Shown here piece by piece: positions 1-25,708 of a DNA stretch of 25,708 nt. Each line of letters opens with the position of its first letter. Within the stretch, counting starts at the first letter, position 1. This DNA is from Thermoproteota archaeon (GTDB lineage: Archaea > Thermoproteota > Nitrososphaeria > Nitrososphaerales > Nitrososphaeraceae), in NCBI GenBank assembly GCA_046731995.1, contig JBKPMB010000294.1, positions 1 through 25,708 on the forward strand, read 5' to 3'. The notes under the pieces are model-generated. The model was given only the letters and a program-made list of their open reading frames with translations, was not told where the DNA came from and did not search any database. Made by a program: the position numbers and the translations under genes.

Positions 1-42
1 GTTAGTCTGCTATGTTATTTAGTTAGTCTGCTATGTGGATTT
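1..42. repeat. 21-bp tandem duplication (2 units) overlapping the stop codon of the antiporter gene
   Basis: Units 1-21 (gttagtctgctatgttattta) and 22-42 (gttagtctgctatgtggattt) share their first 15 nt exactly. The minus-strand stop (cta at 31-33) lies in unit 2 and is copied at 10-12. The window edge truncates the context. Confidence 0.6.
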
Positions 43-1254
43 CTCCTCTGCTGTGATTTGTTTTTTGTAAGATTTTCTAAGCCATATAGGACTTACAACT
101 GTAGTCGCTGCTACCATTATAATGACAGCAGTATAGATGTCTGTTGATAGCACTCCTGATGTAACTCCTACTCCTGCTACAATTAAACCTACTTCTCCTC
201 TCGAAATCATGCCTATTCCAACTCTCATCGATTTGGTTTTGTCTTTTAAAAATATCAATGAAGGAATACCGCATCCAACAAGTTTGGTTACTATGGCTAC
301 AGTCACAATTACAACAGAAAGAACTAGTACATTGATGTTAACTCCACGAAGGTCTACTTGTGCTCCTATTATAGCAAAAAACAAAGGTGCAAAGATTATT
401 TCGAGTTTATCAACGTATTCTTCAACTCTTTTTATTATCTTTGTACTAGATACTGCCATTCCTACTGCAAAGGCTCCAACAATAGGAGACAAACCTACAA
501 ATGCTGAGATCGCTGCGGCTCCAAAGAACGACGCTGTTGTAATTCCCTCTATACTTCCTTTGGATTTCCATAATTTTTCTACATGGAGAATCCTTGGAAC
601 TACAAACACGGCCCCACCTAATAAGACCGCAAATAGGATCAGAATCTTTGATATTAAAAATATTATACTACCAATATCAGGAGCTGTATTTCCAGTTTGT
701 ACCATTGTAGTGACTACAGATAAAACTGCAATTGCAAGTATATCATCGACAATGGCTGCACCTAAAATTAATTTAGCTTCTCTTGATTGCATCTTACCTA
801 GTTCTGTTAATACCTGAATTGATATTGCAATACTTGTAGCTGTTAGTGCTGTTGCAACTAGCATGGATTCTAAAGATTCCAAGCCAAATAGAACAAATAC
901 AAAATAACCAACGAAGAAAGGGACCACAACTCCAAGCCCACCTACGGTAAACGAAGCAGCTCCCCCTTTCACAAATTCTCTTGGTGTAATTTCTAATCCT
1001 GCTATAAACAAAATGACTACTGCAGATAGTCCGCCTATGTGAAGTACAGTCTCATCAAGAACAACAAGGGGTTTTCCATCAAAAAATGGTAAACCACCTA
1101 ATGCAAAAGGGCCTACAATAATACCGGCCATAAGCTCCCCCAACACTATGGGCATTTTTATCCTATGAAATAATTCAGCCATTAACTTCGCAGCAAAAAG
1201 TAATATTCCCAGTGAAAGCACTATGTGAAGAAAAGCTGCCTGTTCTATTGCCAT
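31..1254 (-). CDS. Cation:proton antiporter, CPA2 / Na+/H+ exchanger family (membrane domain only, no RCK domain)
   Basis: 407-aa ORF that is hydrophobic throughout (about 11-13 predicted helices). The N-terminus LLFAAKLMAELFHRIKMPIVLGELMAGIIVGPFALGG is the typical first two helices of Kef/NapA-type exchangers. Later GISRGEVGLIVA-like and AIVDDILAI segments fit the family. Confidence 0.8.
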   Translation of the reverse strand: MAIEQAAFLHIVLSLGILLFAAKLMAELFHRIKMPIVLGELMAGIIVGPFALGGLPFFDGKPLVVLDETVLHIGGLSAVVILFIAGLEITPREFVKGGAASFTVGGLGVVVPFFVGYFVFVLFGLESLESMLVATALTATSIAISIQVLTELGKMQSREAKLILGAAIVDDILAIAVLSVVTTMVQTGNTAPDIGSIIFLISKILILFAVLLGGAVFVVPRILHVEKLWKSKGSIEGITTASFFGAAAISAFVGLSPIVGAFAVGMAVSSTKIIKRVEEYVDKLEIIFAPLFFAIIGAQVDLRGVNINVLVLSVVIVTVAIVTKLVGCGIPSLIFLKDKTKSMRVGIGMISRGEVGLIVAGVGVTSGVLSTDIYTAVIIMVAATTVVSPIWLRKSYKKQITAEEKST

Positions 1255-1636: not shown

Positions 1637-1796
1637 AAATCTTAGCTTTAAATTTGATTGAATAGCTTGAACATATGAATTGTCAATTTTTGCACCATTG
1701 TACTGATAGTTATCGGAGAAAGTAAAAAATATCCGTAAGTAATTAGACACTAGTTCGATATGTTATTAACCTATATTGACTAATTTAAATTGCAAT

Positions 1797-3395
1797 ATGA
1801 TAAGTAAGAAGGCTTGCTGTCGTATTTTCAATGGAAAAATGAGATTGATTTCTTTAGTAGTCTTGAGCATACTTTTATTGAGTATTACAACCACGACTAC
1901 AGTTCTAGTTAGTGACTCAAATACTGCTTTAGCTCAATCACGATCTGGCTCATCAACACCTCCAAGTTCGAATGATATTGGAGGAAGCAATAATACTATT
2001 GCCAACAAAATATCAGAACAACAAGGACGACAATTACAACAACAACAAAGCCAATTATCTTCATCAACACCTTCCTCTTCCTCATCATCGCAACAACCAC
2101 CACAACCACCAAAAACTCATGAGTATACGCTTATAGCAGAAAATACTACGCTTGAAATAGCTCCTGGACTTCGTGTTGATGCCTGGACCTATAACGGTAC
2201 TGTTCCTGGACCCACTATAACAGCAACTGAAGGCGATAGAGTGATAATTCATTTCATTAACAAAACACCTCTTCCTCATACAGTTCATTTACATGGAGAC
2301 CATCCTAGTCAAGAAGACGGAGTATTTGAGCAAGTAGGACCAAATCAAACATATACTTATGATTTTATAGCAGAGCCCGCTGGTGCACTAGCATATCACT
2401 GTCATGTTCCACCAGTAATGCAGCATGTAAGAATGGGTTTGTATGGAGCATTCATAGTGTATCCAAAAACTCCATTACCTCCAGCAAGAGAATATGTTTT
2501 GGTAGACGGGGAATACGATACTCAAAACCAATTAAATCCAATTCCAGAATACTACATGTTCAATGGTTATACAGAGCAATATCAATTGCATCCGCTTCCT
2601 GCTAGGACTAACGAAACAGTAAGAATATACCTGATAAACCTGGGTCTATCTCCAGCGTATGGTATGCACATTCACGGAACTTTGTTCAAAGCATATCCTT
2701 CTGGAATATTGGAGAATCCTACATTCAAAGTGCAGTCATGGGAACTAGCATCAGGCAATACTGCAATATTGGAAGCAAAATGGCCATGGCCAGGTAAGTT
2801 TACATTCCATTTCCATGGCATACCCGAAGAGAGAGGAGCAATGGGGTACTTTAACGTAACAAATGCTCCTACTAATGCGATAGATGGAAAGGATGTAGCT
2901 ATTACAAAGTCTGTAAACATGAATGATTGGCAAATGAACCTATCTAAGAGCTTACAAAAGGCAGATCCAAATGGAAAGGTAACAGCAGTAGCTGCAAGTG
3001 CAAACGAAGAACACCGTGGAATGATGGGTGGAATGCAAATGGGAATGGAAAAACACGGGAAAGCTTCTTCTCCCTCATCTACTGCCACTAACAATGCAAC
3101 ACAAGTATCAATTGCAAAAGGAGCAACCACCTTAGGTAACAAAGCATTTTCACCAGACCATATCAAGGTAAAAGTTGGTGGTACTGTTATTTGGACCAAT
3201 GACGACAATAATATCCACACGGTTACATCAGGTCCACCTAATGCTCCTAACGCAGGACAAGTATTCGATTCAGGCTTAACATCGCTGATAAGTCCATCTA
3301 AAACTTATTCACACAAATTTACAAATGCTGGAGAGTTTTCTTACTTTTGTAGACTACACCCTACGATGGTAGGAGAAATAGAAGTGGTTCCCTAA
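1797..3395 (+). CDS. Secreted two-domain multicopper oxidase (type-1 Cu in domain 1, HCH trinuclear-site motif) fused to a C-terminal plastocyanin/amicyanin-like cupredoxin
   Basis: Copper motifs are HTVHLHG, YHCHVPPVMQHVRMGLYG (HCH...H...M), YGMHIHG and FTFHFHG. The C-terminal domain has IHTVTSG and YFCRLHPTMVG (C-x2-H-x2-M). A signal-anchor MRLISLVVLSILLLSITTTT is followed by a Q/S/P low-complexity linker. The track ORF begins at TTG 1776. ATG 1797 or ATG 1839 are more likely starts. Confidence 0.85.
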   Translation: MISKKACCRIFNGKMRLISLVVLSILLLSITTTTTVLVSDSNTALAQSRSGSSTPPSSNDIGGSNNTIANKISEQQGRQLQQQQSQLSSSTPSSSSSSQQPPQPPKTHEYTLIAENTTLEIAPGLRVDAWTYNGTVPGPTITATEGDRVIIHFINKTPLPHTVHLHGDHPSQEDGVFEQVGPNQTYTYDFIAEPAGALAYHCHVPPVMQHVRMGLYGAFIVYPKTPLPPAREYVLVDGEYDTQNQLNPIPEYYMFNGYTEQYQLHPLPARTNETVRIYLINLGLSPAYGMHIHGTLFKAYPSGILENPTFKVQSWELASGNTAILEAKWPWPGKFTFHFHGIPEERGAMGYFNVTNAPTNAIDGKDVAITKSVNMNDWQMNLSKSLQKADPNGKVTAVAASANEEHRGMMGGMQMGMEKHGKASSPSSTATNNATQVSIAKGATTLGNKAFSPDHIKVKVGGTVIWTNDDNNIHTVTSGPPNAPNAGQVFDSGLTSLISPSKTYSHKFTNAGEFSYFCRLHPTMVGEIEVVP

Positions 3396-6087: not shown

Positions 6088-7134
6088 ATGAACCACACAT
6101 GCTTCGCTTCTACAGTATTTTCAGTTGTAGTTAGCATATTACTTTTTGGTGTTTGGAGCAATGTCTATGTGTATGCACAACAATCATCTTCATCATCTAC
6201 ACCAATGGCATCTCTCCAACCATCACCAGCTGGTAGTAGTATCGCAACGATATCTCCACAACTCAAAGCAAAAATATGCGATCCTAGTAATCCAAGTCTC
6301 AAGGCAGTTAACACAACTGAATCGCTTATATGTGGTATTCCAAAAACAATAAAATCACCTGCATTATCATCACCGGCGCCGTCTACATCCTCATCAGCAG
6401 TTTCATCAACAACGCCGCAACAAACAACAACTACAAAGCCTATTGCGGCTGCTGCTCCAAAACAACAGCAGCAAATTGCAACTACAAATAATAATAATAC
6501 GAAAGCGGTTTCAGGAACAACTGGCGCAAAGGTCGCAACAATATCTCCAGTCGGCAATACCAGCAACAGATCATTATCATCAGCATTATCATCGCCACCA
6601 CCATTCCCTATAGTACCGCAACTAAACACTATAAGTCAACAACAACAGCATCAACAGCCACAAGTACTAACAACAATAAGCAATGGCACGGCTGGACAAA
6701 GCTACACATTTCAAACTTCAAATTCCCCACTACTGGGCTCTGGTAAACTAGTATATCTTGGCTATAATGGTGGTAGTACTGGTACTAGTAGTACTGATAG
6801 TAGCTCGCCAGACAAGAGCACTACAGATACCAAATCAAGTCATGATAGTGGCACTAGTACCTCAAAAGATAAGGAGAGATCCGATAACAACAAATCATCT
6901 GGTCATAAAAATGATGGTAGCAGCTCTCATACCAGCAGCTCTGATAAGAAGTCATCTGGTCATAAAAATGATAGTCACAAGCCATCATCATCATCAAAAA
7001 CAACATCTAAAGCAAAGGATCATACGCATCATGACAACAATGAAAGTAACAAAGCAAAGAAGGAGGGCAGCTCAAAAGGAAATAGTAATCACAAAGGTGG
7101 AGATAGCTTCTTTGATGGCGATCCCTTTTTTTAA
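6088..7134 (+). CDS. Secreted, intrinsically disordered Ser/Thr/Gln/Asn-rich protein with a His/Lys/Ser-rich C-terminal tail (mucin-like)
   Basis: The signal peptide is MNHTCFASTVFSVVVSILLFGVWSNVYVYAQQ. The rest is long S/T/Q/P low complexity. KSSGHKND is repeated (tcatctggtcataaaaatgat appears twice, 57 bp apart, around 6895 and 6952). The protein ends FFDGDPFF. Confidence 0.7.
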   Translation: MNHTCFASTVFSVVVSILLFGVWSNVYVYAQQSSSSSTPMASLQPSPAGSSIATISPQLKAKICDPSNPSLKAVNTTESLICGIPKTIKSPALSSPAPSTSSSAVSSTTPQQTTTTKPIAAAAPKQQQQIATTNNNNTKAVSGTTGAKVATISPVGNTSNRSLSSALSSPPPFPIVPQLNTISQQQQHQQPQVLTTISNGTAGQSYTFQTSNSPLLGSGKLVYLGYNGGSTGTSSTDSSSPDKSTTDTKSSHDSGTSTSKDKERSDNNKSSGHKNDGSSSHTSSSDKKSSGHKNDSHKPSSSSKTTSKAKDHTHHDNNESNKAKKEGSSKGNSNHKGGDSFFDGDPFF

Positions 7135-12816: not shown

Positions 12817-14748
12817 CTATCGCTGACTGGTAGGAATTATCCTATATATCGCTTCCTTCGCTGGACTCTTGTATGGATAACCATGATCCATTTGTATAGA
12901 AAGAACATATAGATATCCATCAGGTCCAACTTGTATATCCGTAATTGGACCGAATCCATAACCAAATAGCATGTTTCCATAACGAAATGTTATATTATGC
13001 ATAAAATCAGGGTTTGATACTAGGTTGTTGTTATTATTATTTGTCCTTGCCGTAATTTGGCTTATACGTATTACATCAAACAAAGTAACGGCTTCCTTAC
13101 CTGGTTGGGAAGACCATCCAGCGTTTAATATTGGACGTATTTTTGCTATGTTTGCAGGTATTATCATTTCACATCTATACTCATGCCATTCCAATGGTCC
13201 ATCGGTACCTGCAGGACATTGTGTCTTAAGCGGGTTCCACGTCTTTGAAGTTTCATCATATCCTTCTATAGCTATATGGGATGCTCTAGCAAACTCATTT
13301 AGTTTCATATGAGTTATTATTTGATATTTTTCATCTGGAATAACATCTATTTCTTTACCAATAATATATGACCATGTATCATTATTAGTCAAGCTTGTAA
13401 GGACCTGAAAACTGGTTTTGATATTTTGCCATCCATTAGTGGAGTTGACTATACATTCAAAATTATATACACAACGCCTAAGGGGATCAGTCCAATTTGC
13501 AGGTAGCTGTGCTTGACCATTATATACTGTCTTGTTTGAGATCGATGAGTCATTTAGGACTAATCCATTTCTTTGATTATTTAGTTTGAAATGGTAGAGA
13601 TTACCATTATTAAAATCTCCTATAAACATATCATTTTCATATTGTTTTCCAAATTTACTGGAGTTCAAGAATTTCAATGCAGTTGGACCGATGGTCTGAT
13701 TCCATATAAGCTCCGGTGCTCGGTATTTTCCTTTTCCTCCAAAGTCTACCAACCCTCTTTCTGGATTTATTGCTACTGGCCCCTCCTGACGAGGAGGAAA
13801 GACACCATTTGGTTTCCACATGCCTTGTACTTGCATCCATCCACTGTTAAACCCGGGTTCAACAAGGTTAATCTCATCTCCAAAATACGGCCCATTTTCT
13901 GTATCCCACAATTTTTTAGTTATAGGGTCAAAGTCAAATCCAAAACTATTGCGTATACCGTATGCATAGTATAGGTTTAGAGGATAATTGTCACCAATAA
14001 TGCCTTTTCCAACTGGTTGACCGTTTTGAGTAATTCTAAGTATTCCGCTTGTTCCATCAGGATCTGTTCCGTTTTGAAAGTTCTGAGCTTTAGTTCTATG
14101 GCGACGCAGATCACCGATCACAAGATAGAGATCATTGTCTGGACCAACCAGCATTCTACCACCATTATGCTGGGGTCCTGGAGTCGCTGGAAGGCTTAGA
14201 AGCGGTTTGGGATTAACTAATTGATTATTTAGTAATTCATATCTATAAAGGCAATTGCATTTTGGTTTTATACCTGCAGCATCATCACCAGTTTTTCCTA
14301 CACCAGATTCTGTAAGGTACAAGAAAACAAATGTAGTTGCAGGTTGAGTGTCATTGGTCTTGCTTTTTATGCTACCGACAGGAACTCCTAGCATACCCCT
14401 TTCTTGTTCTGTTGCTACATTAACATGGAGCAATGGTTTAGAATGTAATGTACCGTTCACAATTCTCTCCACTGTTCCATTATTTTTTTGTAACAGCAAG
14501 ATATCATTTGGACCCAAAAATGCCATAGATGAAGGGAATTTGTCTCCCTTGAATACCGTCTCTACTTTTAAGTTGGGATCAGCGATAACAGGCGGATGAT
14601 CAGTTATCGTTTTACCAGTTACTGGGGATCCCGAAGATGAAGAGGAAGGGGTTTCTTGGGCAAATGTCAAATGAGAAATTTGGACCAACGTAGCAATAAT
14701 AATGCTGACTCCAATCGTTGTCACTATGACCAGATTTCTCTGCAGCAT
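12817..14748 (-). CDS. Secreted glucose/sorbosone-dehydrogenase-like (GSDH, PQQ-type) beta-propeller with a jelly-roll (CBM4_9-like) module inserted before the last blade
   Basis: GSDH signatures are LKVETVFKGDKFPSSMAFLGPNDILLLQKNNGTVERI, HNGGRMLVGPDNDLYLVIGD, SGILRITQNG, YAYGIRNSFGFDFDPITKKLWDTENGPYFGDEINLVEPGFNSGW, and the terminal blade ITDIQVGPDGYLYVLS...AIYRIIP. The signal peptide is MLQRNLVIVTTIGVSIIIATLVQISHLTFAQE, from ATG 14748. The track ORF starts at TTG 14814. Confidence 0.85.
   Translation of the reverse strand: MLQRNLVIVTTIGVSIIIATLVQISHLTFAQETPSSSSSGSPVTGKTITDHPPVIADPNLKVETVFKGDKFPSSMAFLGPNDILLLQKNNGTVERIVNGTLHSKPLLHVNVATEQERGMLGVPVGSIKSKTNDTQPATTFVFLYLTESGVGKTGDDAAGIKPKCNCLYRYELLNNQLVNPKPLLSLPATPGPQHNGGRMLVGPDNDLYLVIGDLRRHRTKAQNFQNGTDPDGTSGILRITQNGQPVGKGIIGDNYPLNLYYAYGIRNSFGFDFDPITKKLWDTENGPYFGDEINLVEPGFNSGWMQVQGMWKPNGVFPPRQEGPVAINPERGLVDFGGKGKYRAPELIWNQTIGPTALKFLNSSKFGKQYENDMFIGDFNNGNLYHFKLNNQRNGLVLNDSSISNKTVYNGQAQLPANWTDPLRRCVYNFECIVNSTNGWQNIKTSFQVLTSLTNNDTWSYIIGKEIDVIPDEKYQIITHMKLNEFARASHIAIEGYDETSKTWNPLKTQCPAGTDGPLEWHEYRCEMIIPANIAKIRPILNAGWSSQPGKEAVTLFDVIRISQITARTNNNNNNLVSNPDFMHNITFRYGNMLFGYGFGPITDIQVGPDGYLYVLSIQMDHGYPYKSPAKEAIYRIIPTSQR
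13055..13510 (-). other. Inserted jelly-roll / carbohydrate-binding-like module (copy in the beta-propeller protein)
   Basis: LPANWTDP...TWSYIIGKEIDVIPDEKYQIITHMKLNEFARASHIAIEGYDETSKTW...LEWHEYRCEMIIPANIAKIRPILNAGWSSQPGKEAVTLFDVIRISQI aligns along its whole length with 23511-23975 on the plus strand. Confidence 0.8.
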
Positions 14749-14938
14749 AATAATATTGGAAACATTAGAGAATCTAAGAGATATATACATGTGTACTTTC
14801 GATACATCTACCAATGGTAGATATCAAAGAAGGACTTGTTTAGTAATTTCAATTAAATTAGAGCGTGTCTCTCCCGCTTTAGTGATTTTATGAAGGAAGG
14901 ATTAGCACCCTCAATGTCATATTTGCTTCTTCTTGTTA

Positions 14939-16555
14939 TCAGGCAAAGACTCTCTTACTTGCTGTCCAATATACTGTAAAACTACCAGGTGATGGTGGAG
15001 TTGTAAAGGTTACATCAAATGAAGATGAATTGATATTAGTAACCCTAGGAATACCACCTGATGTAGTGGATGGATTTACGGTGACAACTGTAGGCGTTAT
15101 ATCCAAGTTGTGATTGATTGTAAATGATGTATTTGACCCGTTACCAGTTAATGAAGCAGCACCTTCATTATTGGTACGATACCCTTCATTATCCCATACT
15201 CTAACATTTGAGTTGGGACCACTGAAGGTGTCTAAAACAAAAGTAGACCGCAAAATCGGATTGCATATTTGATTACCATGAAACATAATGTTAGCACACC
15301 CACCGAATATTCTGAATGCATAGTTGGATGTGTTTGCTTGGCTGTTGTCTTCTTGGTGAAAAAAGTTGCCGTGGACGTTCATGTTGTTGCATCCTTCTAC
15401 GTAACACAAGCCTCTATCACCACCTGTTCCATTACTGGCATTAGAATCTCGTAGTTGGTTGCAGCTCATAATTACCGGACCGCTGACATGTACCAGATGT
15501 ATCAAAGACCACTGACTGTTAGACATTACATTATTTTGGATATTTACCTGCTGAATGCTACCGTTAGCAGGATCGTTGTTAGGGTCTCCGTTTATCCACA
15601 ACCTGCAGTATTTCATAGCATTGTTTGAAAATATGATGTTCCTAAATGGAGTTCGTCTAAAACCACCAGTTGACCAGTTAGTTCCACCAAATAATACTGT
15701 ACCGCCTCTCATGGCATTGTTTGACATCACTATACGGTCGTATACCCCGCCTCTAGGCTCTACCGTGATAAAATCAGCACCGATGTCGGTATCCTGACGC
15801 ACAAACACATTTCCAGTTACGACGTAATTTTCGATACCACCCGATGTAAGACTGCTACCAAAAATGCTGCCGCCAATGCCTGCGGTGCGCTTATCAAAGA
15901 AGTTGTTTGTGACATATGCATGTTCTGTTGATCCGATTGCGACCTGATCTTGTAAACTCGTTTTATCAAACCAGCAACTATCAATCCATATTCCAAGCGT
16001 TTGGAAAGTATGACAGCCCACACCGTTATTGCCGGCGTTCATAAAATGGACTCTTTGTACCCAGTTTCTTGTAGGTGAACCATTATACAATTGACCGCCA
16101 GACAAACCTTGACCGTCAATAGTAAAGTCAGATGCGCTGCCATGTGTCCACCATCGCAACATAGTAAATGGCCTTGCCGCAGGATCGTGCTTTATCACTA
16201 CAGAATTCATAGACTCGCCCCTCAAAGTAATGAAAGCATCAGGGTATGTTTGCGAGCCAATCGCTCTTTCCGCGTTTAGTGTGTATGTTCCAGCCTTTAG
16301 ATAAACAAGCCCGCCTGCTTGTTGTACTGCATTGATTACTGAACCAAATAGCGATGTAGTTTCAGCAGATGTAGCTGGAGCTGATGCAGTTGAGCAGTAA
16401 AGTGGGCCTGTTATTCCGTTTACTGCATTCACTCTGCCACTATCGTCTATGTAAATTGTATAGGTTGGTACTTTGATAGAATTTGTGTCGACGCTACCAC
16501 GGCTACCAGTACCAAGCTCGTCAACATAATCATCAATGTCAGTTTTTGGCGGCAT
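14939..16555 (-). CDS. Right-handed parallel beta-helix protein (pectate-lyase-3 / tailspike-like N-terminal domain, PbH1 repeats, C-terminal beta-sandwich); no signal peptide
   Basis: VINAVQQAGGLVYLKAGTYTL is the pectate_lyase_3-type opening. Repeated NN-turn motifs are present: TNNFFDK, TGNVFVRQ, SNNAMRGG, SNNAMKYC, IQNNVMSNS, HGNFFHQ, HGNQICN. The C-terminus is SLTGNGSNTSFTINHNLDITPTVVTVNPSTTSGG...FDVTFTTPPSPGSFTVYW. The N-terminus MPPKTDIDDYVDELGTGS is hydrophilic. Confidence 0.85.
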   Translation of the reverse strand: MPPKTDIDDYVDELGTGSRGSVDTNSIKVPTYTIYIDDSGRVNAVNGITGPLYCSTASAPATSAETTSLFGSVINAVQQAGGLVYLKAGTYTLNAERAIGSQTYPDAFITLRGESMNSVVIKHDPAARPFTMLRWWTHGSASDFTIDGQGLSGGQLYNGSPTRNWVQRVHFMNAGNNGVGCHTFQTLGIWIDSCWFDKTSLQDQVAIGSTEHAYVTNNFFDKRTAGIGGSIFGSSLTSGGIENYVVTGNVFVRQDTDIGADFITVEPRGGVYDRIVMSNNAMRGGTVLFGGTNWSTGGFRRTPFRNIIFSNNAMKYCRLWINGDPNNDPANGSIQQVNIQNNVMSNSQWSLIHLVHVSGPVIMSCNQLRDSNASNGTGGDRGLCYVEGCNNMNVHGNFFHQEDNSQANTSNYAFRIFGGCANIMFHGNQICNPILRSTFVLDTFSGPNSNVRVWDNEGYRTNNEGAASLTGNGSNTSFTINHNLDITPTVVTVNPSTTSGGIPRVTNINSSSFDVTFTTPPSPGSFTVYWTASKRVFA

Positions 16556-22441: not shown

Positions 22442-25400
22442 ATGAACTCCTATTTGGTGAATATAAAGAGATACGATTATTTAATTGCCTCAATAGGCTA
22501 TTTCCTAATAGCATTATTCATTTTAAATAGGATTTTATTTTTCTCTCCTGGTACAATTGGATTTTTTCATGACTGGCCAATAGGTCCTTATCCTGAAATG
22601 AACCGATCCTATGCAAATGGTGGCCTCTATGTTTGGAATTCCCAGGTAGGAAACATACTTTTCCCTACTGACTGGATATTTCGTCTAAGTCTTCTTCCAT
22701 TTTCGTTTCTGAATGGAGAAATTCTTACTAAAGGGATATTACTTTTGGTCATAACTCTAAGTGGGTTTGGTGCTTTTTACCTTGGAAAGCAGCTTAAGCT
22801 AAGTCCGTTTTCTTCATTTGCAGCCGGAGTTTTATTTATTTTCTCATCGATAGTATTTACAAGAATCGTAGCTGGGCATATTTATTATCTTATCTCATAT
22901 TTTCTGAGTCCATTTATAGTTGCTTTCTTTCTGAAAGGCAGAGAAGAGGTTAAGAAAAATAGACAACGGGATAAAAAGGAAGTAAATTATAAAAACTTCA
23001 AGTACTTTGTAATTGCGGGTATTTTAACATCCTTTGCAGCTATTCAGCTCCAATTTTTAGTAATGATATTTCTTGTTTTATTAGTCTTTACTGTTCTTGA
23101 CTTTGGAAGAATTAAAAAATCTGCTATAGGTCTGATAATAGTTTTTTCTATCGCATCCTTAGTTAATTTGTCTCCTATAATACCTAGCGACGCCTTATCA
23201 ACCAAGTCTTCTTTATCGCATTTTAATCCCACTACTCTTTTATCATTCGACGAGGTGACTCATGCGTCTGATTTAACAAAAAGTTTAAGATTATTAGGAT
23301 ACGAGCTTCATCCATATAGCTATACAGAGATAGGTACTTCAGATGATCATTTAATTGAGTATGATATTAAAAGAATAATGGAAAATAAACCAAATCTGGT
23401 AGCAAATCCTAATTTTGTATTAGTAGGTGGTAGTGGTAGTAGTAATAATAGTAGTAGTAACACTAGCAATAGTAGTAATAGTAATAACAATACTAGTCAA
23501 TCAAAGCTGCCTATAAATTGGACTGATCCCTCTGGAAATTGTAATCACATTTTTAAGTGTATAGTTTTTCAATTTAAAAAAACTACTGCTGGATTGCAAA
23601 ATAGTACAAATAGCTTTCAAATCTCTACAAATAAAACATCTCCTAATCAAAAAACTTGGTCATGGATTTATGGTAAAGAAATAAACGCTAATCCTGGAGA
23701 ACAATATGGAGTCATAACTCATATGAAATTAAACGAGTTTGCTATACGATCTCATATAGGCATAGCAGGATATAATGATACTTCAAAGGTGTGGATGGAA
23801 ATCATACAATGTCCTTCAGGTGGTAATGTGCAGCCAGAATGGCATGAGTACAGCTGTGCGATAACAATACCAAATGGCATTACCAAAATAAGACCAATAT
23901 TAAATGCTGGATGGTCTTCTCAGCCAGGTAAGGAAGCTATCACTTTGTTTGGTGCTATGTGGATAAGTAAGATAGACTATGCAAGTGGTATCATCCCATC
24001 ATGGATATTTTCTTTAGATTTTTTGATTCCTATAACTGGATTCTCAACTCTCATTTTTAGAAAAGACAAGTATACGCTTTCGTTTGCTATGATATCTTTG
24101 ATTGGATTATTCCTTTTGAAAGGACCTAATCCCCCGTTACAGAATATTTTTAACTTTATTTTTATTCACGGTTTTTATATTTTTAGAGAAGTTTGGCACG
24201 TCGCTTTCTTGTATGGATTTGGTATATCATTTTTAATCGTATTTTTTCTGGAGAAAATAATAACAATAACGTCTTCATTTTCTAAGCTTGGGAGTTATTC
24301 AAATATCTATAAGCATCAGAGGCATCAACATCATCATAATAATTTTTTTCATAAATTAGCATCCTCATCATTATTTTTCTTCTACTACGTAAATGATAAA
24401 CTCAAAAATTATTACAAAATTATTATATCTTCCTTTTTAATTTCTCTTATAGTAATTTCTAATGGATATCCTTTATTGCTAGGAAATTTTGGAGGATATC
24501 TGCAGACCTATGATTTTACAAAAGATTATCATACATTATATAACAATCTTCTTACAAATAGTACTTTTAATACCTTAATGCTTCCTTCGCTTGGTCCAAT
24601 TCAATATGATGGTTTAAAGTTATCAGGCCTAGATCCTTTGAGTACCTATTCTTCTAGCAACATATTCTATCAGGATTATGATGGTGTATCCTATCCACTA
24701 TTGGGTACAATTACTTGGTTACATACCGTTATGCAGGAGAACAAGACTAGCAATCTAGGAAAGTTTCTAAGTGGTTTTGGAATAAAATATGTAATTTTAA
24801 GAAAGGATTTTGTATCCAATTATCCACTTTTTACCACATTAGGAAATTACGGTCCATTTCTAAAAAGGTGGTATGCATCTCTTGAACCATTTTTGGATGC
24901 TCAAAATGATCTAACCGTGTTGTCGAATACACCCCATTATAAAATATACGAGAATAGCAATAATGCAAAAAAATTTTTTATCCCTTTAATAGCTACAAAA
25001 GGAATATATGATTATCGAAGTCTGCTTTATATCTCTAATTTTACTTCACTTTCTAACATAGCAGTATACCCATCAGATTATGGCGACAAGGCTTACACGA
25101 AATTTGATAATTCAAGGGATGAAAAATCCACCTATGATTTTGAAGATTTAGGAAAGTATGCCACATCGTACACTGCAGCTAAAGGATGGACAACCAATAG
25201 AGATTGGTTTGGATATGATTATTTATTGGCGTCCCGAGTTCACACAGGTGCATTTAGTACTGTACGCAATTCTACATTTTCATTTGATTTTCCTACTCCG
25301 CATAAATATGAAAATAAACCTATTGAAATGTGGATGAGGGTTTTGACTTGGCCCAATGGAAAGACTGTAAGCATCAGTATTAATGGAAAACAATCTCGGT

Positions 25401-25708
25401 ATTCATTATTCTCTTTATATCCCAATTTTTCTTTCATCAAGATTTTTGATGGAAGGTCCACTGATGGATTATATCATTTATCAATTACAAATATCGTAGG
25501 AAGTAATTATATCGAAGGCATTTATATGAAGGAAAAAAGTCATAGCGGAGATCGCAAAGATATAAATAACATTTTCTTGATTGACACACAGAACAAACCA
25601 AATCTGGTAGCAAATCCTAATTTTGTATTAGTAGGTGGTAGTGGTAGTAGTAATAATAGTAGTAGTAACACTAGCAATAGTAGTAATAGTAATAACAATA
25701 CTAGTCAA
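22442..25708 (+). CDS. Partial (3'-open) gene for a large polytopic membrane protein of at least 1089 aa. It looks like a GT-C-type glycosyltransferase (AftD/DUF3367-like architecture) carrying the jelly-roll module in an external loop. It is not in the supplied ORF track.
   Basis: I translated every codon from ATG 22442 to 25708 by hand and found no stop. TAG at 22436-22438 closes the frame upstream. Hydrophobic blocks lie at about 22442-23200 and 24000-24480. Soluble parts contain FHDWPIGPYPE, GNFGGYLQTYDF, MLPSLGPIQYDG, GIKYVILRKDF and HYKIYEN. The GT-C assignment is an inference from architecture. Confidence 0.85.
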   Translation, partial: MNSYLVNIKRYDYLIASIGYFLIALFILNRILFFSPGTIGFFHDWPIGPYPEMNRSYANGGLYVWNSQVGNILFPTDWIFRLSLLPFSFLNGEILTKGILLLVITLSGFGAFYLGKQLKLSPFSSFAAGVLFIFSSIVFTRIVAGHIYYLISYFLSPFIVAFFLKGREEVKKNRQRDKKEVNYKNFKYFVIAGILTSFAAIQLQFLVMIFLVLLVFTVLDFGRIKKSAIGLIIVFSIASLVNLSPIIPSDALSTKSSLSHFNPTTLLSFDEVTHASDLTKSLRLLGYELHPYSYTEIGTSDDHLIEYDIKRIMENKPNLVANPNFVLVGGSGSSNNSSSNTSNSSNSNNNTSQSKLPINWTDPSGNCNHIFKCIVFQFKKTTAGLQNSTNSFQISTNKTSPNQKTWSWIYGKEINANPGEQYGVITHMKLNEFAIRSHIGIAGYNDTSKVWMEIIQCPSGGNVQPEWHEYSCAITIPNGITKIRPILNAGWSSQPGKEAITLFGAMWISKIDYASGIIPSWIFSLDFLIPITGFSTLIFRKDKYTLSFAMISLIGLFLLKGPNPPLQNIFNFIFIHGFYIFREVWHVAFLYGFGISFLIVFFLEKIITITSSFSKLGSYSNIYKHQRHQHHHNNFFHKLASSSLFFFYYVNDKLKNYYKIIISSFLISLIVISNGYPLLLGNFGGYLQTYDFTKDYHTLYNNLLTNSTFNTLMLPSLGPIQYDGLKLSGLDPLSTYSSSNIFYQDYDGVSYPLLGTITWLHTVMQENKTSNLGKFLSGFGIKYVILRKDFVSNYPLFTTLGNYGPFLKRWYASLEPFLDAQNDLTVLSNTPHYKIYENSNNAKKFFIPLIATKGIYDYRSLLYISNFTSLSNIAVYPSDYGDKAYTKFDNSRDEKSTYDFEDLGKYATSYTAAKGWTTNRDWFGYDYLLASRVHTGAFSTVRNSTFSFDFPTPHKYENKPIEMWMRVLTWPNGKTVSISINGKQSRYSLFSLYPNFSFIKIFDGRSTDGLYHLSITNIVGSNYIEGIYMKEKSHSGDRKDINNIFLIDTQNKPNLVANPNFVLVGGSGSSNNSSSNTSNSSNSNNNTSQ
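23387..23500 (+). repeat. 114-bp perfect direct repeat, copy 1 (encodes KPNLVANPNFVLVGGSGSSNNSSSNTSNSSNSNNNTSQ)
   Basis: A character-by-character comparison with 25595-25708 shows 114/114 identity, in the same reading frame of the same ORF. Confidence 0.95.
23511..23975 (+). other. Jelly-roll / carbohydrate-binding-like module (copy in the giant membrane protein)
   Basis: LPINWTDP...TWSWIYGKEINANPGEQYGVITHMKLNEFAIRSHIGIAGYNDTSKVW...PEWHEYSCAITIPNGITKIRPILNAGWSSQPGKEAITLFGAMWISKI. The pattern (W...PG..Y....vK...........W.ey...i.iP.....ir..L) fits CBM4_9/galactose-binding-like domains. Confidence 0.8.
25595..25708 (+). repeat. 114-bp perfect direct repeat, copy 2; the window ends at its last base
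   Basis: Identical to 23387-23500. Confidence 0.95.

Follow-up and report, generated by a model that had tools for sequence, protein, structure and literature searches.

A CBM_4_9-type module nested in a GSDH-family propeller of a Nitrososphaerales archaeon and its possible origin from a tandem array

Can a propeller of the glucose/sorbosone dehydrogenase (GSDH) family hold a foreign sandwich domain between its last two blades and, if it can, where did that domain come from? The question is raised by a gene for a 643-residue protein on contig JBKPMB010000294.1 of a soil ammonia-oxidising archaeon of the Nitrososphaerales, a stretch of 25,708 nucleotides that was analysed as a whole and is called the window below. 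A sequence-only reading of the window had proposed that the GSDH signatures of this protein run up to an insert of about 150 residues and resume with the last blade, that the insert is a jelly-roll module and not a divergent blade, that the same module sits in a giant membrane protein encoded on the opposite strand, and that both proteins act on the same polymer. Our analysis places a sandwich of the CBM_4_9 type in the linker between blades 5 and 6. We consider it reasonably probable that this nested sandwich was permuted by duplication of a slice from a tandem module array, and that it targets the enzyme to a glycan.

The propeller and its nested domain

The window protein (identical to P0030; P and L numbers designate the protein clusters and genomic loci compared here) is encoded by a single uninterrupted open reading frame, 12817-14814, with its ATG at 14748 on the minus strand. 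Pfam GSDH (PF07995) matches residues 71-394 with 123.5 bits (cut-off 25, E=1.5e-35) over profile positions 3-293 of 332. The end of the profile, absent from this match, is found beyond the insert, where residues 598-632 align to 2ISM 313-346 (GFGRLREVQVGPDGALYV) and to Asd 324-342 (RIRDVRTGPDGYLYVL), so that the signatures do run up to the insert and resume after it. Against the NCBIfam model TIGR03606 the protein scores 65 bits, with a cut-off of 434, and it is therefore not an equivalog of that subfamily.

An AlphaFold2 model of the full protein (mean predicted local distance difference test, pLDDT, 77; predicted template-modelling score, pTM, 0.70) contains the strands of the last blade at residues 602-607, 613-619 and 631-639. 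The best Foldseek matches in the PDB are pyrroloquinoline quinone (PQQ) sugar dehydrogenases, and the alignment to 2ISM (E=7e-19, TM-score 0.78 on the target) covers both sides of the insert in 581 columns, in agreement with the expectation that the propeller closes around an excursion domain. On this modelling, the 643-residue protein is a GSDH-family six-bladed propeller. The model also has a helix at residues 2-22, and residues 1-31 appear suited to direct export. The matched dehydrogenases (Acinetobacter calcoaceticus soluble glucose dehydrogenase, sGDH, 1C9U; Escherichia coli Asd/YliI, 2G8S; Thermus TTHA0570, 2ISM; Pyrobaculum 3A9G) share with the window protein the six-bladed fold, PF07995, the HxGGR and GxRN motifs and an exported location; they differ from it in having no nested domain and in keeping an RxR[DE]V motif, and their identity to it is 17-22%.

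The sequence motifs of the active site are partly retained. QHNGGR aligns to LHSGGR of 2ISM and GIRNSFG to GHRNPQG (HMMER); we take the histidine of HxGGR and the arginine and asparagine of GxRN to have the catalytic or PQQ-binding roles of their counterparts in sGDH. The last blade begins with PITDI in the window protein, as against RIRDV in Asd and RLREV in 2ISM, whose arginine pair presumably binds PQQ as in sGDH. In all archaeal relatives examined, whether inserted, N-terminally fused or module-less, RxR[DE]V is replaced by [PIG]-I-T-D or [IG]-[IV]-T-D. Given this replacement, classical PQQ binding is doubtful for the whole expanded Nitrososphaerales GSDH family.

Alignment to Asd (HMMER) placed the insert between the last two blades, where it had been proposed to lie. 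HFKLNN of the window protein corresponds to strand 5C, NGLVLND to strand 5D (KVTEDGRILTD in Asd) and, beyond the insert, PITDIQVGPDG to strand 6A (RIRDVRTGPDG in Asd). With strand 5D before it and strand 6A after it, the insert occupies the linker between blades 5 and 6; blade numbers are from alignments and AlphaFold2 secondary structure, not from coordinates. Across the same site uninserted relatives read IYHFKLNGNRTGLLLNGSLADKVVDNKQETQGIIFATGFGIITDMEVGPDG. The proposed length of about 150 residues fits the module core, which has 151, and falls short of the whole insert, which measures about 185 residues against uninserted relatives.

What kind of domain is inserted? Residues 431-564 of the module are modelled with a pLDDT of ~90-95, and the local Foldseek matches of the insert are carbohydrate-binding modules (CBMs), namely CBM4-2 (1K42), CBM22 (4XUP and 4XUO, TM-score on the target 0.61-0.64) and the CBM4 of CelK (3P6B). 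3JXS is also among the local sandwich matches of the window models, and the copy in the modelled membrane protein likewise matches CBM4-2. These fold matches, together with the alignment of the propeller on both sides, indicate a distinct jelly-roll domain inside a closed propeller and not a divergent blade, as the sequence-only reading had held.

Relatives with canonical strand order allow the module to be assigned to a family. A search with the insert returned ~30 relatives, mostly of 215-265 residues, that consist of an N-terminal anchor, NLVSNPNF, a short linker and the module. Canonical-order homologs with 50-62% identity pass Pfam CBM_4_9 (PF02018) at 30.9-42.6 bits (33.1 for P0005, 38.9 for P0014 and 42.6 for the stand-alone protein of L082), and multi-copy proteins do so at 54-92 bits (P0153, 91.8). 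In canonical-order homologs the match begins at NLVSNPNF, at profile position 1-2, so NLVxNPxF is the first strand of the domain and not a separate linker element. Within the module core C426, C432, C511 and C526 are invariant in 15 inserted relatives. On these profile and model data the module is a divergent, cysteine-containing, lineage-specific β-sandwich of the CBM_4_9 type. It shares its fold and an N-terminal 'NLv.N..F' first strand with CBM_4_9 and with the CAZy families CBM4 and CBM22 (1K42, 3P6B, 4XUP), but it is very divergent from them and contains cysteines, and the propeller copy has its first strand at the C-terminal side, whereas the membrane copy is canonical. Five stand-alone proteins (P0004, P0005, P0009, P0012 and P0014) have a conserved C-terminal tail past the module, '..G[FI][IV][AG]GFIP[SR]..', which was not seen in nested copies and may be a processing or anchoring signal.

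Strand order, relatives and carriers of the module

The position of the first strand was examined with a position-specific scoring matrix made from 130 canonical first strands. Its top match in the whole window protein (rank 1, 23.4 bits) is NLVSNPDF, just downstream of the module. Nothing comparable stands upstream, where SISNKTVY (residues 401-408) is the propeller's own SLADKVV. Eight of nine relatives of the window's group with the inserted, or A-type, architecture behave in the same way, with the best match directly after the module at 17-23 bits and nothing upstream; the exception is P0044. Across 15 relatives N575 is invariant and F582 nearly invariant, and the poly-Asn linker in front of this motif differs among A-type relatives. 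BLASTP aligns the propeller module to 23393-23990 (plus strand) of the membrane-protein gene with 91/160 identities (57%, E=4e-61), the core matching 23507-23974, and the identical blocks quoted earlier are present. The reported difference in order is borne out, since NLVANPNF and its linker precede the membrane copy (at 23393, and again at 25601) and NLVSNPDF follows the propeller copy. No third copy of the module was found within the window by tblastn.

Tandem module arrays exist in this lineage: P0035, P0046 and P0048 each have two or three copies at the N-terminus, and P0150, P0153 and P0015 have several. In a single BLAST alignment (51% identity, 159 columns), the core, poly-Asn linker and NLVSNPDF of the window protein correspond to the core of module 1 of P0015, IGND, and ISNPDF of module 2. 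Both observations fit the earlier suggestion of an array slice with shifted boundaries. We propose that a register-shifted slice, made of copy n without its first strand and the first strand of copy n+1, would have been copied from a tandem array and pasted into a module-less propeller, which would amount to a circular permutation by duplication.

Such a course has precedents. Jelly-roll domains are circularly permuted in nature, as between concanavalin A and favin and between the 1,3-1,4-beta-glucanases of Fibrobacter and Bacillus, and the permutation-by-duplication model explains such cases by tandem duplication followed by trimming; nested domains, too, are already known. Shifted termini and tandem intermediates in the same lineage, both features of permutation by duplication, occur here. 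Like the known permutations, the window copy would have the same fold with shifted termini; it differs in that it is also nested in another domain, and the completion of the sandwich by the displaced strand is a prediction from sequence. A whole-protein permutation of an N-terminal fusion was considered and rejected, because what follows the insert corresponds to the last part of the GSDH profile and not to its first. Between the three tandem modules at the N-terminus of P0035 (1021 residues) stand 'DPNLKIEALYQGLE.P' repeats that equal the first strand of the propeller, so the duplicated unit included the propeller start, another sign of imprecise duplication boundaries.

The inserted architecture is recurrent among GSDH relatives. 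It was found in 15 clusters at 58-80% identity, drawn from JGI, ENA and NCBI, and in more divergent form in P0205, probably in P0249, and in L001 and L003, which are paralogs in the metagenome-assembled genome CRAIB_MAG96; in total it occurs in at least 19 clusters or loci. N-terminal fusions, with one to three modules before an uninterrupted propeller, account for the majority of the listed matches (~100 clusters). Module-less relatives have 420-500 residues, and the core of one of them, P0117, is 65% identical to the window protein. Genomic loci were taken as the best ~80 of 544 genomic relatives, from species-representative genomes; nearly all of the best 79 are module-less, and all are from Nitrososphaerales. 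In a neighbour-joining tree of 331 core columns the 15 inserted proteins fell into one clade with P0117 and the N-terminal fusion P0052 (60% bootstrap), with L003 outside the clade. That the inserted proteins share a clade suggests that the insertion is old and has mostly been inherited vertically, and with module-less P0117 among the nearest propeller cores, we take the host to have been module-less before the insertion.

Other architectures in the same family were also seen. P0051 has modules at both ends of the propeller. P0071 and P0111, relatives with N-terminal fusions, carry a discoidin domain (F5/8 type C, PF00754/PF22633), which in P0071 interrupts an earlier blade immediately behind the GLLGIAV motif; the propeller family repeatedly gains sugar-binding-type domains at different sites. 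P0008 (262 residues) comprises a signal, the module, NNLVSNPTF and the last GSDH blade only, without blades 1-5. Its gene may be truncated, or metagenome assembly may have produced a chimera by joining two sequences at the shared module.

Among 1.84 billion representative proteins, a profile of the module detected 348 clusters at E<=1e-3, all from Nitrososphaerales. Its carriers are stand-alone anchored proteins, GSDH propellers, GT-C transferases of the PMT and PMT_2 families, AftD-like giants, alginate lyases, a spermine-synthase-like membrane protein and a Cip1-like lyase; they are extracytoplasmic and mostly carbohydrate-active. Module identities across carriers (55-77%) are equal to or higher than those between inserted copies of different lineages. 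The insert of P0036, compared with P0355 and P0354, shares 77% identity with a copy borne by a PMT protein and 75% with one borne by an alginate lyase, against 63% with other inserts. This pattern suggests, at the level of sequence identity, that modules have been shuffled or gene-converted among carriers. Module-bearing genes also cluster: in L080 an inserted GSDH gene is flanked by genes for two PMT_2 proteins, one of them module-bearing, and three more GSDH genes, and in L082 an inserted GSDH adjoins an N-terminal fusion and a stand-alone module.

This distribution changes how the two copies in the window should be seen. Their identity of 57% lies within the family norm of 55-65% and gives the two genes no special link. 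The nearest non-inserted relatives of the window insert are the internal copy of P0295 and the stand-alone P0004 (both 65%), and other A-type inserts reach 68%. The module is confined to one order, and in that respect not ubiquitous, yet within that order it is promiscuous across many carriers. Because of this promiscuity, the claim that both window proteins act on the same polymer is reduced to a guess at the level of the lineage.

Alternatives to a complete, permuted, glycan-binding module

Several observations weigh against a complete, permuted and glycan-targeting module. The CBM_4_9 match that had been expected is present in canonical-order homologs, whereas in the window the propeller copy, at 14.3 bits, stays below the cut-off of 25.9 and the membrane copy is not matched at all. 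When the module profile was compared with the PDB by sequence, no solved structure was found, the best being a chance match at E=0.32. Residues 568-590 have a pLDDT below 50, so that AlphaFold2 does not predict docking of the displaced strand, and the canonical first strand of the membrane copy is equally unresolved in its model. The trailing motif is weaker in the P0040-P0047 group (NATLNFDF), eroded in P0044 (RLAIDRDP), and reduced in divergent inserted proteins to an alternating pattern (VDLFPDINY; VDLFPESF was also seen); since it decays in some A-type proteins, it may be a vestige. The trees are neighbour-joining trees with modest support. Finally, replacement of the arginine pair by PITDI or ITD across the family leaves the cofactor and the activity uncertain.

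The unstructured segment and the decay of the motif would also be expected if the insert were an incomplete domain, with NLVSNPDF a mere leftover linker and the sandwich either lacking a first strand or borrowing an upstream propeller segment; the model does show short bridges at residues 396-408, upstream of the module. We regard this as rather unlikely, though a serious contender, because the window's group keeps the motif at 17-23 bits while the neighbouring poly-Asn linker varies, with N575 and F582 conserved as described above, and because even the eroded versions still alternate (D-L-F-P-D-I-N-Y). Moreover, in the input alignment given to AlphaFold2 the first strands of homologs stood ahead of the module, and this disfavours docking of a downstream strand in the model. 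The module might instead be a cell-envelope or S-layer anchor, or a protein-protein interaction domain, that keeps exported enzymes at the archaeal surface and binds no carbohydrate. Many carriers are indeed anchored in the membrane or are small stand-alone proteins whose N-terminus forms an anchor, sequence comparison detects no solved CBM, and the sandwich fold also matches MAM, ephrin-receptor and Cry-toxin domains. Yet by family and by fold the module is matched best by CBM_4_9, CBM4-2 and CBM22, and the identifiable partners (GSDH, PMT, AftD-like and alginate lyase) are mostly carbohydrate-active, so we think this explanation unlikely.

That the insert is a recent local copy from the membrane-protein gene of the same window is suggested by the presence of both genes in one glycosylation island and by the internally repeated module DNA of the membrane gene (117 nt, 99%). 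However, the protein identity is only 57%, no nucleotide-level identity was seen between 13054-13506 and 23507-23974, the insert is closer to the P0295 internal copy, to P0004 and to other A-type inserts, and the insertion is common to relatives down to 58% identity and must therefore be old; a recent local origin is very improbable. We give practically no credence to an artefact, be it an assembly chimera, a frameshift fusion or a divergent extra blade. The contig does end in a repeat, and P0008 may be a chimera, but the gene is one uninterrupted reading frame, no fewer than 19 independent clusters or loci, of several sources, have its architecture, the insert matches CBM folds and not blades, and 2ISM aligns with the propeller before and after the insert.

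The second carrier, the surroundings and the meaning of the module

The coordinates of the features discussed here are collected in Table 1. The AlphaFold2 model of the membrane protein (pLDDT 74, pTM 0.72) has as its top Foldseek match mycobacterial AftD (6W98, E=6.4e-6, 1175 columns), followed by EmbB, EmbC and Pmt1-Pmt2. Sequence profiles gave weak NCBIfam matches to MmpA (3.7e-5) and archaeal STT3 (0.0024), and the homolog P0338 reached 25.4 bits with Pfam GT-C_AftD (PF11847; cut-off 26) over 440 residues; a profile of the membrane family matched nothing in the PDB by sequence. GT-C enzymes carry a catalytic acidic residue in the first extracytoplasmic loop; in this protein a nearly invariant aspartate, D44 (GFFHDW), follows the first helix. 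The modelled fold thus supports the proposal that the membrane protein is glycosyltransferase-like. AftD is reportedly a GT-C arabinofuranosyltransferase with a large soluble domain that contains CBMs. Both proteins have an N-terminal multi-pass GT-C domain and a large extracytoplasmic part with CBM-type sandwiches; they differ in that identity is only 9% and the TM-score only 0.32-0.37, and the archaeal protein, unlike AftD, ends in a membrane anchor and has a further module placed within a membrane-domain loop.

Table 1. Coordinates of the features of the propeller gene and the membrane-protein gene in the window
Feature	Position	Strand	Basis
GSDH-family propeller gene, A-type architecture; 643 residues, probably exported	12817-14748	minus	open reading frame and translation
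Putative N-terminal signal peptide or membrane anchor, residues 1-31 (MLQRNLVIVTTIGVSIIIATLVQISHLTFAQ), followed by a Ser-rich linker	14656-14748	minus	sequence
Propeller blades 1-5, residues 71-394, with QHNGGR and GIRNSFG motifs	13567-14538	minus	Pfam GSDH; HMMER alignments to 2ISM, Asd and 3A9G
Whole inserted segment, ~residues 405-592, ~185 residues against uninserted relatives	12973-13536	minus	comparison with P0057 and P0117 (SLADKVVDNKQETQGIIFATGFG); alignment to Asd
Module core, residues 415-565 (LPANW...IRISQI), 151 residues, strand 2 to last strand	13054-13506	minus	BLASTP; AlphaFold2; Foldseek
Poly-Asn linker TARTNNNNN, residues 566-574, between last strand and predicted displaced first strand	13027-13053	minus	sequence; pLDDT <50
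NLVSNPDF, residues 575-582, predicted displaced first strand after the module	13003-13026	minus	Pfam starts in homologs; scoring matrix; collinearity with P0015; pLDDT <50
Last propeller blade, residues 598-639, GFGPITDIQVGPDGYLYVLS...AIYRIIP	12832-12957	minus	alignment to 2ISM and Asd; AlphaFold2 strands
FGPIT, residues 599-603, site of replaced RxR[DE]V motif	12940-12954	minus	alignment to Asd and 2ISM
AftD-like GT-C membrane protein, 1089 residues, incomplete at contig end	22442-25708	plus	homologs P0294-P0296; AlphaFold2 and Foldseek
Module copy 1, canonical order: first strand NLVANPNF 23393-23416, S/N-rich linker 23417-23506, core 23507-23974	23393-23974	plus	
Start of module copy 2: first strand 25601-25624 and linker, to contig end	25592-25708	plus	117-nt direct repeat; full-length homologs with second module there

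Full-length relatives of the membrane protein (P0294-P0296) have 1331-1367 residues and two modules. Relatives of ~1100 residues (P0306, P0324) have only the C-terminal module and read YSYENLSNDGIIPTWILYLD across the site of copy 1, which indicates that copy 1, too, is an insertion, located in a membrane-domain loop. A direct repeat of 117 nt with 99% identity, 23384-23500 and 25592-25708, encodes the first strand and the S/N-rich linker of both copies; its second instance reaches the contig's final base, and the repeat is probably where the assembly broke off. In P0294 and P0295 the linkers of the two module copies are likewise nearly identical, which suggests intragenic gene conversion in the membrane-protein family.

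The propeller and membrane genes are separated by ~7.7 kb, and the module copies by 10 kb. The glycosylation island of the window (GC 35.6%) holds three GT2 genes, one GT4 gene, a UDP-GlcNAc 2-epimerase and a methyltransferase. The gene just upstream of that for the propeller, 14939-16555 (minus), encodes a 538-residue protein with no Pfam or NCBIfam match and no obvious signal peptide, repeat-rich and by eye β-helix-like. Its homolog at L082:7036-8625 (32% identity, E=6e-71, full length) adjoins the inserted-type GSDH P0036, and the two genes may form a conserved pair. Inside the glycosyltransferase island, 6088-7134 (plus) encodes 348 residues with a signal-like N-terminus and mucin-like low complexity rich in Ser, Thr, Gln and Lys, plausibly a heavily glycosylated surface protein. 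At 1776-3395 (plus) and 31-1254 (minus), a multicopper oxidase fused to a C-terminal plastocyanin-like domain stands beside a Na+/H+ exchanger. The GC content of the window, together with the assignment of all related loci to Nitrososphaerales, suggests that the DNA comes from a low-GC member of the Nitrososphaeraceae such as Nitrosocosmicus.

The most likely function of the nested module is to bind a glycan polymer, which would tether the dehydrogenase to an extracellular or cell-envelope polysaccharide or orient it there. Since the module is also found on envelope-building GT-C enzymes and on lyases, the most plausible ligand is a glycan of the cell surface or of exopolymers, from these archaea or from their soil habitat. 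A bolder version, which we think distinctly doubtful, is that the nested module sits rigidly at blades 5 and 6 and forms a composite site with the propeller. A scaffold for free-sugar dehydrogenases would then have become an enzyme that oxidises a polymeric glycan, such as the cell's own exopolysaccharide or a soil polysaccharide, and passes electrons to the cupredoxin-rich respiratory chain of ammonia oxidisers, and the loss of RxR would reflect a cofactor or binding mode unlike that of classical sGDH. If that were true, the module would represent a new CBM family, the ligand of which would be peculiar to Nitrososphaerales.

Glycan targeting of GSDH-like enzymes is already known from the fungal AA8-AA12-CBM1 pyranose dehydrogenase CcPDH (PMC4332668, PMC5960967), which likewise combines a GSDH-like PQQ propeller (AA12) with a carbohydrate-binding module. 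CcPDH has a small CBM1 on a C-terminal linker and a cytochrome domain (AA8), whereas the window protein has a nested, putatively permuted sandwich of ~150 residues and no cytochrome. Genome papers on Nitrososphaerales describe expanded glucose/sorbosone dehydrogenase-like families and speculate on sugar oxidation and mixotrophy (PMC6657660, PMC13006922). We found no mention of CBM modules on the expanded GSDH family in PMC6657660, PMC13006922 or PMC10117904, and no description of a CBM-carrying or CBM-inserted GSDH from ammonia-oxidising archaea in the literature, of which our coverage is incomplete. We regard the nested module as an instance of domain shuffling, within a module family peculiar to this lineage, and not as a new class of system.

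Most of the listed archaeal GSDH-like proteins carry this CBM-type module, which is also borne by GT-C transferases and alginate lyases, and this points to polymeric surface glycans, not free sugars, as their context. The module thereby offers a concrete and testable handle on the substrates of the abundant archaeal 'sugar dehydrogenases'. The stand-alone domain, tandem arrays, N-terminal fusions, canonical-order insertions and a putatively permuted insertion all occur in one lineage, which would make it an example of the permutation-by-duplication pathway with its intermediates still present.

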